Shown: positions 3,775-57,619 of the stretch, one piece after another
How the letters are laid out: each line of letters begins with the position of its first letter
Position numbering within the stretch: the stretch's first letter is position 1
Source of the DNA: Eledone cirrhosa
Lineage: Eukaryota
DNA length: 64,000 bases
NCBI GenBank assembly: GCA_964016885.1
Contig: OZ024759.1
Span: forward strand, 31,992,001-32,056,000
Direction of reading: 5' to 3'
The notes under the pieces: generated by a model
What the model saw: only the letters and a program-made list of their open reading frames with translations
Databases searched by the model: none
Told to the model about the DNA's origin: nothing
Made by a program: the position numbers and the translations under genes

Positions 3775-4052
3775 TAGGGCGGGTAACATTCCCGACATCC
3801 ATGGACGAGTTCTCTCCAGCGGTCTCTGTCCCTCATTATCGCTGTATGAGAGCCTCCCAAAAGTCAGCTCAAAAGTGACACAGAGGAGACTGAGGTTAGC
3901 TAGACATGCTCACCGACATCCAGAGTTGACATTGCACTCAGTGCTCCTGTGGGAGTCCCTACATGGACACACTGGAAGAGGAAGACCAAGGTTAACGTAT
4001 GTTGATGCCCTAAGGACAGACACTGGTCTGTTGGAGACGCAGGACATGGCAG

Positions 4053-22796: not shown

Positions 22797-23003
22797 TAGG
22801 AAAAGGTATGACCCCGCCGGCAGAGCTCAAGCCGTTTCGACGGCTATTTCTGGACTGTTATCGCCGTCCAGAAATAGCCGTCGAAACGGCTTGAACTCTG
22901 CCGTCGGGGTCATACTTTTTCCTATTTCCCACTCTACTACCCTTAGTATTGAGTACTCTGGTGCGGTATGGTCCATCTGGTTCCTTACCACAAATCCTTT
23001 GAT
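22797..23003. mobile_element. Family B palindromic insert
   Basis: Arms 22797-22855 and 22866-22924, 10-nt spacer, 3' tail to 23003. Confidence 0.85.
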
Positions 23004-23954: not shown

Positions 23955-24142
23955 ATAACGGAGGAAATGTCGTAAGGAACCAGGTGGACCATAACGCACC
24001 AAAGTACTCAATACTTAGGGTAGTAGAGTGGGTAATAGGAACCAGTAAGACCCCGACGGCTGAGCTCAAGCCGTTTCGACGGCTAATTCTCAGAATTAGC
24101 CGTCGAAACGGCTTGAGCTCAGCCGTCGGGGTCCTACTCGTT

Positions 24143-24146
<4 letters not shown>
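23955..24146. mobile_element. Family B palindromic insert
   Basis: Centre at 24091 (aattct-c-agaatt); flanked by (TA)n. Confidence 0.85.
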
Positions 24147-25696: not shown

Positions 25697-25698
<2 letters not shown>

Positions 25699-25832
25699 AA
25701 TTAGCTGTCGAAACGGCTTGAGCTCAGCCGTCGGGGTCCTACTCGTTCCTATTACCCACTCTACTACCCTAAGTATTGAGTACTTTGGTGCGTTATGGTC
25801 CACCTGGTTTCTTACCACATTTCCTTCGTTAT
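25697..25832 (+). mobile_element. Family B fragment
   Basis: Starts in the stem II 3' strand, ends ttccttcgttat; within (TA)n. Confidence 0.85.
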
Positions 25833-28070: not shown

Positions 28071-28074
<4 letters not shown>

Positions 28075-28594
28075 CGAAGGAAATGTGGTAAGGAACCAGG
28101 TGGACCATAACGCACCAAAGTACTCAATACTTAGGGTAGTAGAGTGGGTAATAGGAACAAGTAAGACCCCGACGGCTGAGCTCAAGCCATTTCGACGGCT
28201 AATTCTGGACTAAATGAAAATTTATCCTGGTATTTAAATAGCCGATCTTCTCAAGGGGTAATTCCATATATGGTCAAAGTGATTGTCAAAAGTCAGTAGT
28301 AATTCTGTGATTGCAAATTAGTAGGAGAGATGGTGGCTAAACCTGCCAGTAGGAGAAAGAGGGGAGGGGGTGGAGTAGACCCAATCAAGCGTTGGTAGTG
28401 CCAGCTACAGCTGGGCATGAGGTCAAAGAAGATACTGGGGAGGGGGAGGAAGTCGGAACGGTAGGTAGAACAATGAGGGGTAAAAATATATAAGAAAGAA
28501 AAAATACTGAGAGTGAAGAAAAGCGAATAAGTGTAAAGAAAAAAGTAAAGCAAGTTCTACGACCTAAGTCTCTAGCTATTGTTAGGCTAGATAG

Positions 28595-28671: not shown

Positions 28672-28883
28672 TAGGAACGAGTAGGACCCCGACGGCTGAG
28701 CTCAACCGGTTTCGACGGTTAATTCTGGACTAAATGCAGACTATTTAGTCCAGAATTAACCGTCGAAACGGCTTGAGCTCAACCGTCGGGGTCCTACTCG
28801 TTCCTATTACCCACTCTACTACCCCAAGTATTGAGTACTTTGGTGCGTTATGGTCCACCTGGTTCCTTACCACATTTCCTTCG

Positions 28884-28886
<3 letters not shown>
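28672..28886. mobile_element. Family B palindromic insert
   Basis: Arms meet at ctggactaaat-gcagact-atttagtccag (spacer 28736-28742). Confidence 0.85.
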
Positions 28887-36409: not shown

Positions 36410-36953
36410 GATAAATCTACCAAGAGTTTACGGTAGTGTCCAATCCGTATGAAGAACTCAATGTATTCCGGATATCATGGAAAGAAGAGATGCAATGAAA
36501 AACGACTTTCGGTGAAAGATAAACGGTATACAGAGTCAAGATAAAATATTAAACAAATAATGAACAAACAATTCCTTATATTAAACAAAAAAAGTTCATT
36601 ATTTAACGATCGTTTCTAGGATATATATGTGTTATAATTGGTATGCATATTCAACAGATCTATGTACAAAATTATACAAAATTATACAAATTATCAAGAT
36701 TAAATATACATACCAAACACATATATACGCCGTCTTCAGAAATAATCATTATTTCTGAAGACGGCGTATATATGTGTTTGGTATGTATATTTAATCTTGA
36801 TAATTTGTATAATTTTGTATAATTTTGTACATAGATCTGTTGAATATGCATACCAATTATAACACATATATATCCTAGAAACGATCGTTAAATAATGAAC
36901 TTTTTTTGTTTAATATAAGGAATTGTTTGTTCATTATTTGTTTAATATTTTAT
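36407..36953. mobile_element. Family E element: 413-bp palindrome (36541-36953) with long-stem-II hammerheads
   Basis: 206-bp arms, 1-nt centre at 36747; tcattattt-CTGAAGA-(116 nt hairpin)-GAAA-cgatc-GTT-aaataatga at 36746-36898. Confidence 0.85.
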
Positions 36954-37194: not shown

Positions 37195-37198
<4 letters not shown>

Positions 37199-37387
37199 AC
37201 GAGTAGGACCCCGACGGCTGAGCTCAAGCCGTTTCGACGGCTAATTCTGGACTCCAGAATTAGCCGTCGAAACGGCTTGAGCTCAGCCGTCGGGGTCCTA
37301 CTCGTTCCTATTACCCACTCTACTACCCTAAGTATTGAGTACTTTGGTGCGTTATGGTCCACCTGGTTCCTTACCACATTTCCTTCG

Positions 37388-37390
<3 letters not shown>
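37195..37390. mobile_element. Family B palindromic insert
   Basis: Centre at 37252 (tctgga-c-tccaga). Confidence 0.85.
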
Positions 37391-37749: not shown

Positions 37750-38076
37750 TACATATGAAGTAATTCCATCGGAAAAGTCCAGGAAAAAAGAGTGCTCTAT
37801 GTAAGCAACAGAGCTTAATTATTATTATTATGTAATAAACAACATAAGGCAATTATTCCATTTACCAGTGGTTTCTTAAAAGCAAAAGGTTTTGCTTTCA
37901 ATCCTCAGAATGAAAAATCCTGGTTTGTTTTACAAACCAGGATTTGTTTTACAAACCAGGAAAAACAAACCAGGATTTTTCATTCTGAGGATTGAAAGCA
38001 AAACCTTTTGCTTTTAAGAAACCACTGGTAAATGGAATAATTGCCTTATGTTGTTTATTACATAATAATAATAATA
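37750..38076. mobile_element. Family F element: inverted repeat (37820-38076) with hammerhead (37978-38037)
   Basis: tttcatt-CTGAGGA-ttgaaagcaaaa-cct-tttgcttttaa-GAAA-cc-act-g-GTA-aatggaa; spacer built of repeated acaaaccagga. Confidence 0.85.
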
Positions 38077-44264: not shown

Positions 44265-44452
44265 ATAACGAAGGAAATGTGGTAAGGAACCAGGTGGACC
44301 ATAACGCACCAAAGTACTCAATACTTAGGGTAGTAGAGTGGGTAGTAGGAACCAGTAAGACCCCGACGGCTGAGCTCAAGCCGTTTCGACGGCTAATTCT
44401 AGTCCAGAATTAGCCGTCGAAACGGCTTGAGCTCAGCCGTCGGGGTCCTACT
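44265..44452. mobile_element. Family B palindromic insert
   Basis: Arms separated by agtcc (44401-44405). Confidence 0.85.
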
Positions 44453-50631: not shown

Positions 50632-50958
50632 CTAAGGCGGGTAAAATTCCCGAGATCCATGGACGAGTTCTCTCCAGCAGTCTCTGTCCCTCATTATCGC
50701 TGCCATGTCCTGCGTCTCCAACAGATGGTGGATGGGTGCTACACGAGAATGCTGAGGATGGCTCTGAACATTAATCAGTATACACTGAGGATGAAAAACT
50801 CAGAGCTGTACGGGAGCATCCCAAAAGTCAGCTCAAAACTGACACGGAGGAGACTGAGGTTGGCTGGACATGCTCACCGACATCCAGAGTTGACATTGCA
50901 CTCAGTGCTCCTGTGGGAGCCCCTACATGGACACACTGGAAGAGGAAGACCGAGGAGA
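50632..50958. mobile_element. RTE-clade LINE 3' fragment with internal inversion
   Basis: + strand MVDGCYTRMLRMALNI..RRRLRLAGHAHRHPELTLHSVLLWEPLHGHTGRGRPR; - strand 50632-50723 encodes LLETQDMAAIMRDRDCWRELVHGSREFYPP*. Confidence 0.85.
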
Positions 50959-52827: not shown

Positions 52828-53089
52828 TCGCTCACTCACTCTCTCTCTCTCGCTCGCTCGCTCACTCACTCACTCACTCACTCACTCACTCACTCACTCA
52901 CTCACTCACTCACTCACTCACTCACTCACTCACTCACTCACTCACTCACTCACTCACTCACTCACTCACTCACTCACTCACTCACTCACTCACTCACTCA
53001 CTCACTCACTCACTCACTCACCACCCCCTCTCTCTCTCCATATATGTAAGTTTTCTCCTACCATATATGTATTGCAGAGGTTGAGCAGA

Positions 53090-53211
53090 ATGTCTGGAAC
53101 GACGGAAGAGAATCGCTACCGTCAGCGCAAACCCACCCCACTACAGATTGACCCCGCGGCACAACTTGACGCGACCAAGGTGAAAGACAAGGACTTCTCA
53201 AACTGCCAACC
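53090..53211 (+). CDS. Coding exon A of a small spliced protein (MSGTTEENRYRQRKPTPLQIDPAAQLDATKVKDKDFSNCQ); exon starts at 53078
   Basis: Acceptor ttgcag| at 53077, ATG with A at -3, donor cc|gtaagt at 53212, complex GC-balanced sequence; frame is open to the acceptor, so it may extend upstream. Confidence 0.7.
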
Positions 53212-53619
53212 GTAAGTTCTTCTCAGACCACTCTCATTGTTCCTTTCAGCACATAACTGCCTCAACCCTCCATTCTTCCTGGTTCTGTGACACAAAACTG
53301 TTTGCTTGTTTGTTTTAAACTATTTATAACTATCTGCTAAGAGTTGCAACCGGAAGATAATATCAGCATTGGAAAGACTAATGAAAACATTGTATCCTTG
53401 GTCTAATTTGACGAGACCCAACCAAACTACTCAGTAATGAGGTCTGGGATCTTGTCAATCAACTTCTTCTTATTAAAAAAAAATTGAAAAGAACAAAGTA
53501 AAACAAAAAACCTGCCATCGTAATTTTATGCAAAAAACTTTAAGTTATGTTCCAAACACCATATTGATAATGAGGAATTTAGTTATATTACTAATCTCCT
53601 CCAAATTTCTCAGAGAAGA

Positions 53620-54285
53620 ATGGATACCCAATAGTGTGTGTGTATATTATGTTTATTCAACAAAGTTGGGACTTAGCTCATGGTCTCTAAAAACGGATAC
53701 CCAATAGGGTGTGTATATTGTTTTTAACAAAACATTTGAACGTTGGAACTTAGCTCAGGTTCCCCCAGAAGAATGGAGGATACCCAGCAGTGTCTGTATC
53801 TGAAATAAAATTTATTTATTAGAAAGAAATATACAAAAATGAACATATTTTTTTTAAATGATGAAAATAGTAAACAGGAAGGGAAAAAAATATTTAAAAA
53901 ATGACAAAAACAAAATAGGTTAGGGGAAAAGAGGAAGAAACATTTACATCATTGGTTGGGGGTTAAGAAATAAATAAAGTACTTGACATTTTGAACTTAG
54001 CTCATAGCCTTCCAGAAGAATTGATTCTGTGTATTTAAAAAAGTCAACTTAGCTCACAGACGACCAGAGGAATTGACACCTAGAGTGTGTTTATAATGTT
54101 TTTAACAAAGTATTTTGAAAATTTAAACTTAACCCAAGGATACCCAGTAATTTGTGCATATTATGTGTTTTTAACAAACTACTTGGAAATATAAATTTAA
54201 CTCACAGTCCCTCAACAATGGATACACAATAGTGTGTGTATATTAAGTTTTTAACAAAGTATTTGAAAATTTAAACTGACCATGG
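53620..54285. repeat. Diverged intronic tandem repeat
   Basis: Recurrent ggatacccaatag.gtgtgtatatt..tttttaacaaa..aacttagctca. Confidence 0.7.
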
Positions 54286-54341
54286 CTGGCTCATATAGGG
54301 CTGTCTGGCAGGTTTCCTACGGGTGGATGCCCTTCCTAACA

Positions 54342-54414
<73 letters not shown>

Positions 54415-54418
<4 letters not shown>

Positions 54419-54592
54419 ATCCAGGGATAACTTGAACCGTTAAGGTACATTATCCCTGGTTATGTCAAAATTTATAAAACACACTTCGTATTTTATCTGA
54501 TGATAGCGTACCAAAAGTTTTGGTACCCTTGAAATATGTATAATAAAATAAATATGGTTTTATAAATATAGTTTCCATTTATTAATATATTG
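54415..54592 (+). mobile_element. Family D element with hammerhead (54490-54549), in the predicted intron
   Basis: attttat-CTGATGA-tagcgtaccaaaa-g-ttttggtaccctt-GAAA-tatgta-TA-ataaaat. Confidence 0.85.
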
Positions 54593-54658
54593 TATATATA
54601 TATATATATATATATATAAGAGGGTGTTAAAGTTTGCTTGAAGCATTGTGAAATGTGT

Positions 54659-55140
54659 AAAATACGTATTTAAGAAAGCCACAACAATGCAGAGGGAAAT
54701 CTCGAGGTAGGAAGTGAAAGATAGATAGGAAAAACAGGTGAAAGTGAAAATAGAGAGAGTCAAAGATGAAAACAAAACAAAGGTAGAAGGGTTACCGTAG
54801 TAGAGATTTAATCCCAATATTTCGGGCTCACGCCCATCAACGGGGGAAAGTTCCAAAAGTTGTGATGTCGTTAAGACAGGAATGCCGTTAACGGCATTCC
54901 TGTCTTAACGACATCACAACTTTCTCCGCTTGGCCTGTTCCCCCCCTTTTGGAACTTTCCCCCGTTGATGGGCGTGAGTCCGAAATATTGGGATTAAATC
55001 TCTACTACGGTAACCCTTCTACCTTTGTTTTGTTTTCATCTTTGACTCTCTCAATTTTCACTTTCACCTGTTTTTCCTATCTATCTTTCACTTCCTACCT
55101 CGAGATTTCCCTCTGCATTGTTGTGGCTTTCTTAAATACG

Positions 55141-55146
<6 letters not shown>
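54659..55146. mobile_element. Family J nested palindrome with variant hammerhead-like fold (54958-54993)
   Basis: 200-bp outer arms 54659-54858 / 54947-55146; inner perfect palindrome 54856-54923; tccc-CCGTTGA-t-gggc-gtga-gtcc-GAAA-ta-TT-ggga. Confidence 0.8.
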
Positions 55147-55187
<41 letters not shown>

Positions 55188-55192
<5 letters not shown>

Positions 55193-55330
55193 AGATCAAA
55201 AGATGGTTAAAAGAGTTCCATGTATTTTATTATGCGCATTTCAAAAACAAATATCATGCGATGACATTTGTGTTTTCGTCAGATAAAATAGGGAGACATG
55301 ATATGAAGGTTAAAAAACACTTGTGAATAG
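55188..55330 (-). mobile_element. Family D-type element with hammerhead (55224-55289)
   Basis: attttat-CTGACGA-aaacacaaatgtcat-cgc-atgatatttgttttt-GAAA-tgcgca-TA-ataaaat. Confidence 0.8.
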
Positions 55331-55530
55331 TGCAGTTTTAAATCAATATATATATATAGTATTAAGGATACTATTTATGGTTATGTATACAATAAAACCT
55401 TTTATGGTTATATATATTTTAAACCCTAAATAGTGAAAGACAGTAATTCATTACTATCTTATTACCAGTAAGATAAATAGCTCAATGTAATAACATATAT
55501 ATATATCCTCTCATATTTTTTGTTTTACAG

Positions 55531-55642
55531 ATTATCGGAAGCTCTGGATTTACCATCGGCAAATGACCCGTCGCTTCCACCCTCGCCGGCCACCAGAAAA
55601 TCACCTTTCACTTTCGAGTTTCCGGTCGAAGCTGCTAAGTAG
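55531..55642 (+). CDS. Terminal coding exon B ((P)LSEALDLPSANDPSLPPSPATRKSPFTFEFPVEAAK*)
   Basis: Strong acceptor ttttttgttttacag|; phase-2 junction cc|a matches exon A; TAG at 55640-55642. Confidence 0.7.
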
Positions 55643-55887
55643 GCGGCAGCACCGTCACTACTGGAGCATGTTGGGCTGCCATTGCAATTTGTACATAAAC
55701 CTCCTCCTCCTCCTCCTCTTCCCTTTATCTATACAACTCCCCCTCTTCCTTGCCTCTACTCCTCTTCATCCGCCCCCCGTCTGCTACTAACGCCAAATCC
55801 TTTACCCTCGACACCACCTACACCACCCCTTTTTCAGGACTCTTGATAAATAATTCTTTAACTCTCGTTCATCTCGGATACCCGCCT

Positions 55888-55966
<79 letters not shown>

Positions 55967-56062
55967 CATATATATATATACATATATCTATATATATCTA
56001 TATATATATATACATACATCTGTTTCTATACATATAGATATGTACACACACATAATACATGC

Positions 56063-56111
<49 letters not shown>

Positions 56112-56219
56112 CTTTTCATTTATTCGTTCAACTCATCTTCATTTCAAAAACCCGGTTATAATTGATTTATTTTTAACACACTGACACACACACACGCACG
56201 CACACACATTCACACACAC

Positions 56220-56261
<42 letters not shown>

Positions 56262-56269
56262 GCACACGC

Positions 56270-56315
<46 letters not shown>

Positions 56316-56379
56316 ATGTATAAATTTCTACGTGCAAGAGTCTTTCTTGATGCTGGTTGTTAGCATGTGTGTATGTGTT

Positions 56380-56446
<67 letters not shown>

Positions 56447-56929
56447 CGTACCCTTAATCCTAGTTTTATGCAAATGTGCGTATATATAGCCTCTGTTTGG
56501 TTGGGTGGATTACTAGGGGTTGATATAGATGGAATGTGTGTGTATACGGATATCAGAGCAGTGTAGTGTAGGGAGCATGTGTATACATGTCTGTCTGTCT
56601 GTCTGTTTGTCAGACAGTGAAGTAAGTTGAGGGGAAGAATGCAGGACCTTTGCTTGGCTCTGGTGCTTGGGTGGGGTAGGCTTTGGAACTCTTTGTGTGG
56701 CCACCCTAATTTGCAATAATTCTAAGGTCGATGTTTCGGAATAAGTATACCACTGTAAATGTTCCAATTCTGAGGGTGCACCTTTGAAAAGTAGGGTAGG
56801 GAGGGGAGAAGGCAGTGTTTTTTTTTAGTGCCCTTCCCCCATCCTTGGCGATGGGCACATAAGGATATATATATATATACATATATGTGTATATATATAT
56901 ATACATATATTTTTATATATATATATATG

Positions 56930-56983
<54 letters not shown>

Positions 56984-57067
56984 CACATATACATATATAT
57001 ATACATATATTTATATATATATATATATACACACACACACATATGTGTGTATATATACATATATATG

Positions 57068-57117
<50 letters not shown>

Positions 57118-57155
57118 TACACTCACACATATGTGTGTATATATACATATATATG

Positions 57156-57225
<70 letters not shown>

Positions 57226-57416
57226 TCCTATGTGTGTATATAGATGTATGTGTATAGATATATGTGTATTTAAAACTGTTGATTAGGTTATATAAGACAT
57301 ATGTAAAAGCTCTGTTAATGGAAAATGATGATGTGACCAGAAAGACTTGTGAAACTCAAAGTATTTTTAAAGGCATACCATATATACATATATGTATATA
57401 TATATGTATATATATA

Positions 57417-57496
<80 letters not shown>

Positions 57497-57585
57497 CTTA
57501 GATATATAGATATATATATGCATCTCTCTATATATATATTGTGTACATATCTATGCATTTATATATAAAAAAATATATATATATT

Positions 57586-57619
<34 letters not shown>

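Follow-up and report, generated by a model that had tools for sequence, protein, structure and literature searches.

The window analysed here is a 64,000-nt stretch of Eledone cirrhosa DNA (contig OZ024759.1 of assembly GCA_964016885.1, positions 31,992,001 to 32,056,000 of the forward strand), a microsatellite-rich animal sequence of which 52% was masked by TRF. It contains a spliced gene for a stand-alone protein of 77 amino acids (aa) in which a predicted docking site for mitogen-activated protein kinases (MAPK D-site) is followed by a serine-proline acceptor, Ser59, and by an FxFP motif (a putative DEF, or F-site, ligand). On balance, we think that this protein probably uses its D-site and FxFP to bind ERK, is phosphorylated on Ser59 and tunes ERK by occupancy; that it binds either ERK or p38 is a prediction in which we have good confidence. 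The features of the gene are listed in Table 1, and residue numbers follow the window protein except where orthologue residues are named.

The region was present in three public runs (X1, X2 and X3), all from one study; the library type of X3 is not on record, and no run containing the region is labelled as RNA. A single 672-nt contig from X3 (depth 65) matches 53076-53211 without a mismatch. It spans exon A end to end with loose ends at both boundaries, the one after 53211 being the first 30 letters of exon B, so that 53211 is joined exactly to 55531; X3 depth is zero across 53230-53324. In X1 and in X2, which may be the DNA source of the window, a single contig passes through exon A into the intron. 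The X3 contig behaves like a spliced mRNA. The phase-2 join of the two exons yields precisely the 77-aa protein, translated from the sole ATG of exon A (53090), and both exons are richer in G+C (0.54 for exon A and 0.52 for exon B) than the intron (0.31). A sequence-only reading of this DNA had proposed the 53211/55531 junction and the 77-aa product, and the X3 contig bears out both. If that contig is colinear with the window, it ends at about position 55917, within a TA repeat; no AATAAA was found in 55643-57600. One low-depth X2 contig shows an A/G difference at 53209, the third position of codon 40, which is synonymous (Gln) and could be an allele or an error.

Table 1. Position of the gene, its protein motifs and the dispersed repeat copies in the window
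Feature	Position	Strand	Remarks
Exon A	53078-53211	+	cag acceptor, gt donor; 12-nt 5' leader; codons 1-41, phase-2 end
Intron	53212-55530	+	2319 nt, GT-AG; holds microsatellites and a palindromic element of about 500 bp
Exon B	55531-55890	+	cag acceptor at start; codons 41-77, stop 55640-55642, then 3' untranslated region, its end here provisional
ENRY block, residues 7-10	53108-53119	+	invariant in 6/6 sequences; Tyr10 predicted to contact ERK
MAPK D-site, residues 11-20, DCC/Far1-type	53120-53149	+	pattern match in 6/6 sequences
Conserved middle block, residues 30-46	53177-55546	+	spans the junction; 6 changes in 17 columns versus 18 in 9 in the preceding linker
S-x-P-x-S-P, residues 55-60	55571-55588	+	S55, P57, S59 and P60 invariant in 6/6 sequences; Ser59 is the predicted ERK site
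Lys64 and overlapping FxF/FxFP, residues 67-72	55598-55624	+	predicted DEF/F-site; K64, F67, F69, F71 and P72 invariant
Copies of dispersed repeat family	22806-22999, 23958-24144, 25698-25829, 28074-28215, 28674-28884, 37198-37388, 44268-44452		

The X3 contig carries 149 more letters 5' of exon A. Reading back by eye the 30 letters upstream of the ATG revealed an in-frame TAA at codon -6, and because of this stop the transcript encodes a stand-alone 77-aa protein and not a tail. The last 20 letters of the upstream exon are absent from the window at up to two mismatches. This 149-nt non-coding exon would thus lie outside the window; provided that the assembly is colinear, the intron ahead of exon A is longer than 53 kb, and the larger part of the window is intron. 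No other convincing gene appears in the long open reading frame (ORF) list for 1-53077. The spliced gene and its stand-alone reading frame are real, and rarer isoforms are possible.

The search with exon A matched an Octopus vulgaris hypothetical protein of 79 aa (CAI9738980.1, UniProt A0AA36FHJ6) and one Logan protein (P0004). A profile made of these two then gave five matches among 230 candidates of 40-139 aa, adding two more Logan clusters and a hypothetical protein of 73 aa from Argonauta hians (GAB1607810.1). The three Logan clusters span 73-86 aa, and their homologous part starts at the same place: most relatives begin with a Met just ahead of the ENRY block, the window protein and its O. 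vulgaris orthologue four residues earlier. Identity to the window protein is 94% for O. vulgaris and 59% for A. hians, and ranges from 58 to 94% among the six sequences compared; the DNA would accordingly come from an octopus near, though distinct from, that of the O. vulgaris record. When six proteins of the family were run against the window with tblastn, meaningful E-values were obtained at the two exons only. One Logan call, P0012 (165 aa), was set aside as the 73-aa form with a C-terminal extension, probably a read-through into the untranslated region. No relatives were found among metagenome contigs, and a phmmer search of exon A against 1.84 billion representatives gave nothing beyond the octopod set: it returned P0004 and four weak matches, of which P0005 and P0008 are repeat proteins and were rejected, and P0006 and P0007 had no matched stretch. 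The query consists of 45 disordered residues, and the null outside octopods therefore means lack of detection rather than absence from squid or other molluscs. The comparison indicates a gene conserved from Octopus to Argonauta, of the separate incirrate families Octopodidae and Argonautidae, and so far found only in octopods; the conservation looked for across molluscs by the sequence-only reading thus reaches Argonauta, and none was detected in other molluscs. A dated Argonauta-Octopus split was not found in the literature. The gene is not a new discovery: two genomes already have annotated orthologues, listed as hypothetical proteins without function or family; the new part is the function proposed here. 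Within the open-access literature, no publication turned up that deals with this protein or with a free-standing microprotein combining a D-site and a DEF site.

The sequence-only reading had left room for the two exons being the C-terminus of a longer protein. In its more specific form, they would be the regulatory tail of an Elk/TCF- or Gab-like protein and the short form one isoform among others, which we consider very unlikely. The reading frame of exon A stays open ahead of the ATG, the order of the modules resembles that of Elk-1, one Logan call (P0009, 86 aa) begins 13 residues earlier, and the long upstream intron leaves room for further exons outside the window. However, the stop at codon -6 stands in one contig unbroken across both junctions and makes the upstream exon non-coding, and the two genome annotations give proteins of 79 and 73 aa. 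Moreover, the phmmer search found no longer protein containing exon A. A separate search for longer homologues was blank too, but it counts for little, having missed the 86-aa P0009. As for the two families, Elk/TCF proteins have an ETS domain, for which there is no Pfam match here in addition to the stop before the ATG, and Gab/DOS members are long PH-domain proteins whereas the octopod proteins have 73-86 aa and no Pfam family above cut-off.

The absence of a recognisable folded domain, anticipated from the sequence, is also what the predictions show. Pfam gave nothing above cut-off for the window protein or its family (a protamine-like match with an E-value of 0.075 was rejected), and a search of the PDB by sequence gave no match for exon A. 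The AlphaFold2 (AF2) model of the orthologue has a predicted template modelling score (pTM) of 0.16 and a mean predicted local distance difference test score (pLDDT) of 67, with no residue at 90 or above; short helices are placed at orthologue residues 4-13, 23-30 and 43-47. The ESM Atlas model has a pLDDT of 0.25. The predictions thus point to a disordered protein without folded domain. A few marginal matches were discarded: two between the family profile and the PDB (E-values of 0.14 and 1.6), judged to be due to chance; ESM Atlas feature matches to small hypothetical proteins of fungi (0.78 and 0.76), below the chance level of the tool; and ESM Atlas structure matches, which rest on the model of pLDDT 0.25. 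No named ESM Atlas cluster was hit.

The pattern of conservation was analysed by parsimony on a fixed tree of six sequences, namely the window protein, P0003 (O. vulgaris), P0004, P0014, P0010 and P0011; P0009, P0012 and P0013 belong to the same cluster as P0014 and were left out of the counts. Over 71 gap-free columns there were 50 changes, distributed as follows: none in the 4 columns of the ENRY block, 3 in the 10 of the D-site, 9 in the 7 of the linker 47-54, 2 in the 6 of SxPxSP, 5 in the 5 of segment 61-66, 1 in the 6 of segment 67-72 and 6 in the 5 of the tail (for the linker 21-29 and the middle block, see Table 1). None of the 50 changes fell on the 12 motif-defining positions (permutation P = 0.00026), which were listed from consensus patterns after the alignment had been seen. 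By comparison, only 12 of the 26 non-motif columns with P, F, L, I, R, K or S are unchanged. A simpler count gives 17 invariant columns out of 22 in the motifs versus 21 out of 49 elsewhere (Fisher P = 0.007). The motif conservation expected from the sequence-only reading is thus found, and both the motifs and the middle block are under selection.

The D-site has a basic residue, a longer linker and three hydrophobics with 2-spacing (P-x-P-L-x-I), as in the DCC class. With the patterns that we take to define the DCC, JIP1 and MEF2A classes, the JIP1 (JNK) and MEF2A (p38) types match none of the six sequences, the JIP1 pattern being a short-linker one without Pro between the lower-pocket Pro and Leu. 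In the C-terminal half, Ser55 lies at -4 of Ser59, presumably a GSK3-type spacing. FxFP is C-terminal to the S-P acceptor in all six sequences, 9-10 residues past the PxSP serine; in the window protein, it comes 10 residues after Ser59 and the overlapping FxF 8 residues after. According to the part of PMC1379644 available, FXFP mostly follows the acceptor on its C-terminal side, its effect is additive with that of the D-domain, and it binds ERK2 and p38alpha and not JNK3. The ordered architecture (D-site, PxSP, FxFP 6-20 residues past the Ser) is found in 6/6 sequences. Shuffling the protein 200,000 times reproduced the ordered DCC-type architecture in 5 cases, and a less strict version of it in 246; this test is post hoc, and at such a rate a proteome of 10^7 residues could hold a few chance cases, which is why conservation is the real test.

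Codon 16 (53135-53137), inside the D-site, encodes only Thr or Ser, before Pro, in the six sequences. Position 16 may be a phosphosite switching docking off. It can also be seen differently: position 16, which follows a basic stretch and toggles only between Thr and Ser, could be the phospho-acceptor of an inhibitor or peptide that is regulated by phosphorylation and has nothing to do with MAPK docking, with motifs meant for another partner; there is some resemblance to inhibitor-1. This seems hardly probable: the RVxF (PP1 docking) and PxIxIT patterns match 0/6 sequences, there is no Pfam match above cut-off, and the conserved FxFP and the hydrophobic-x-hydrophobic pair are left unexplained.

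Binding to ERK was modelled with ESMFold2, with ATP and Mg and without alignments, using the O. vulgaris orthologue and, as a stand-in for the octopod kinase, an unphosphorylated animal ERK1/2 (full-length ORF from a metagenome contig, L079). The interface score (ipSAE) was 0.70, 0.71 and 0.71 versus 0.00 in all three controls; among solved complexes, 51 of 78 attain the mark applied, as do 2 of 108 mismatched pairs (71/105 and 2/126 for eukaryotes). The runs share at least 39% of contacts, and the pLDDT of the partner is at least 41. Confident contacts involve orthologue residues 9-11, 14-23 and 25-26 and, on the ERK side, L113, T116, S120, D122, H123, Y126, L155-C159, Y314, D316 and D319, which match the D-recruitment site as listed in the available part of PMC4459106. 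Residues 8-25 are thus predicted to sit in the D-recruitment groove. In the model, the invariant Tyr contacts ERK Y126, Y129, Q130, R133, Y314, D316 and D319; together with helix 4-13 of the free chain, these contacts hint at a helical N-end of the D-site. Zeke et al. described a possible sixth class, unknown in 2015, in which a forward D-motif would combine 2-spacing with a helical end (PMC4670726, in part); going by the models, the octopod D-site is a candidate for it.

What the model shows is similarity to known D-peptides rather more than binding, and it is silent on ERK versus p38. The true partner could then be p38, or p38 together with ERK, rather than ERK alone. We view this as quite unlikely: many DCC-class motifs, as well as FXFP, also bind p38alpha, but the class primarily binds ERK2 (PMC4670726 and PMC1379644, both in part), and the p38-type pattern is, as said above, found in none of the six proteins, nor is the JNK-type one.

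The known system closest in organisation is the Elk-1 regulatory module (D-site 312-324, Ser389, FQFP 395-398), where D-site, S-P acceptor and FxF(P) come in the same order. Elk-1 387-399 (PRSPAKLSFQFPS) can be aligned by eye with the SP-to-FxF segment of the family, and the Lys three residues before the first Phe is the counterpart of Elk-1 K392, which contacts the phosphorylated activation loop; the distance to FxFP is 6 residues from Ser389 in Elk-1 versus 10 from Ser59 (PMC4459106, in part). The protostome ELK motif is also of the Far1 type (PMC4670726, in part). Unlike Elk-1, the family proteins have 73-79 aa in all, no ETS domain and, upstream of the ATG, an in-frame stop. No sequence search tied the family to Elk. 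By analogy, the family would work like the Elk-1 regulatory module. The likeness of the D-site to that of MEK1, put forward in the sequence-only reading, stands with 5/10 identities to MKK1 (MEK1), but GAB1 527-536 (RKVKPAPLEI) is closer, with 6/10 and a common K-P-x-P-L-x-I core, Elk-1 having 4/10 there and being the closer one for the SP-to-FxF segment (PMC4670726 and PMC3073974, both in part). GAB1 527-536 is a tested ERK2 binder of the Far1 type with a downstream S-P site; GAB1 itself differs as a large PH-domain adaptor, the octopod motif has the invariant Tyr upstream, and the available text of PMC4670726 places the GAB1 module, among invertebrates, only in Branchiostoma. These two parallels, Tyr10 and the middle block go beyond what had been read from the sequence.

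Three other systems show that small or motif-only proteins can dock on signalling enzymes, none of them with any homology shown to the octopod family. ORF45 (16-76) of Kaposi's sarcoma-associated herpesvirus (KSHV) is likewise non-catalytic and binds active ERK via FxFP, altering its dephosphorylation (PMC8789800, in part); it is viral, and its FxFP is paired with an RSK-binding motif rather than with a D-site of its own. CLMB/MICT1 (76 aa), which docks on calcineurin (PMC13143143, in part), and APPLE (90 aa), which binds phospho-ERK (PMC12247205, in part), are of similar size, but they are mammalian and have other motifs and partners.

The mechanism that we favour, that of a bivalent ERK ligand, is drawn from known ERK biochemistry. 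The D-site would bind ERK in either activation state; FxFP would add grip on activated ERK only, the F-recruitment site being formed only upon activation (PMC4459106, in part); and Ser59 would be the acceptor for phosphorylation by ERK. Lacking any catalytic or DNA-binding domain, the protein would act by occupancy. In the D-groove, it would compete with MEK, RSK and MAPK phosphatases, and at the F-site it would shield the activation loop. MKKs, RSK and MKPs are reported to bind the D-site in a mutually exclusive manner, and FxFP binding to shield the loop from phosphatase (PMC8789800, in part), so a protein holding both sites would, depending on its dose, either block new activation and access of substrates or protect active ERK. 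The net effect may be to damp or to prolong ERK activity, and the sequence gives no sign of which.

A second partner may be brought in through the conserved middle block. The main alternative to the ERK modulator is accordingly worded around it: the protein would be an adaptor that brings PP2A-B56, through an LxxIxE motif in this block, or some other partner to ERK, which we hold to be distinctly unlikely. LxxIxE is the B56 docking motif, and a functional link between B56, ERK and IEX-1 has been published (PMC10970375, in part); LSEILE fits that motif in P0014, P0010 and P0011, i.e. in three of the six sequences, and L42, S43, E44 and L46 are invariant. However, Ala stands in place of the Ile in the window protein, the O. 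vulgaris protein and P0004, two of which also have Asp where the motif calls for Glu; besides, the basic/acidic first half of the block falls outside the motif. IER3 is a possible analogue, though a literature search for a docking site in it was empty. We would call unlikely, though worth stating, a bolder form in which most of these elements are combined: a two-handed clamp, equivalent to the control region of Elk-1 without the transcription factor, would grip ERK by both D-groove and F-site and set signal duration; its D-site would be of the forward sixth class with a helical, Tyr-anchored N-end, and its middle block would serve as a PP2A-B56 site that Argonauta-type proteins have retained and that has weakened in Octopus.

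Several points weigh against the ERK modulator that we favour. Its weakest step is the modulator role, as most proteins with docking sites are plain substrates. The transcript support is one contig from one study, of a library type not on record, and only six related sequences were compared. The middle block, with 0.35 changes per column versus 0.30 for the D-site, is conserved to a similar degree, and ERK docking leaves it unexplained. As to the model, the pair consists of the stand-in ERK and the orthologue; ERK-peptide complexes have already been solved, so that the pass is possibly a matter of memory; ESMFold2 is uncalibrated for disordered peptides, and the controls comprise neither p38 nor JNK. 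FxFP is not among the confident contacts, which is expected with unphosphorylated ERK, yet gives it no support. The small disordered ERK substrate, decoy or regulator of the sequence-only reading is supported by sequence, transcript and model. None of the three findings that would have spoken against it was made, as the spliced form exists, the motifs are selectively conserved and the upstream exon is non-coding, and D-site docking has been added by a model; ERK binding, Ser59 phosphorylation, use of the F-site, a preference for ERK over p38 and any decoy or feedback role are predictions.

A few other elements were noted in the window. Just 3' of exon A, the intron DNA (53340-53600) consists of a high-copy repeat, contig depths adding up to more than 10,000 in X1 and X2. 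Further in the intron, the palindromic element (54653-55152, about 500 bp) has 207-nt arms that are 98% complementary around a perfect 34-nt hairpin; it is bordered by TA runs and resembles a miniature inverted-repeat transposable element (MITE) or a fold-back element. Two more near-perfect self-complementary elements lie at 36573-36921 (349 nt, 99.7%) and 37832-38061 (230 nt, 93%). A dispersed repeat family of about 130-210 bp with an internal palindrome (Table 1) has most copy pairs 82-98% alike; Rfam gave no match in the window, this family included. Finally, 3841-3991 and 50805-50955 are two copies, 94% identical, of a sequence with an open frame and no Pfam match; we take this frame to resemble the end of the ORF of an RTE-type long interspersed nuclear element (LINE).

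Docking motifs for ERK normally lie inside large substrates, kinases or phosphatases. If the proposed function is right, the octopod protein would be a minimal endogenous ERK modulator, made of almost nothing other than a D-site, an acceptor and a DEF site, and would provide a ready template for bivalent ERK probes. If it is instead an ordinary substrate with a second partner, it would define a new small family of modest importance. To conclude, a gene hitherto annotated as hypothetical is offered a testable function, and one that is cheap to test.

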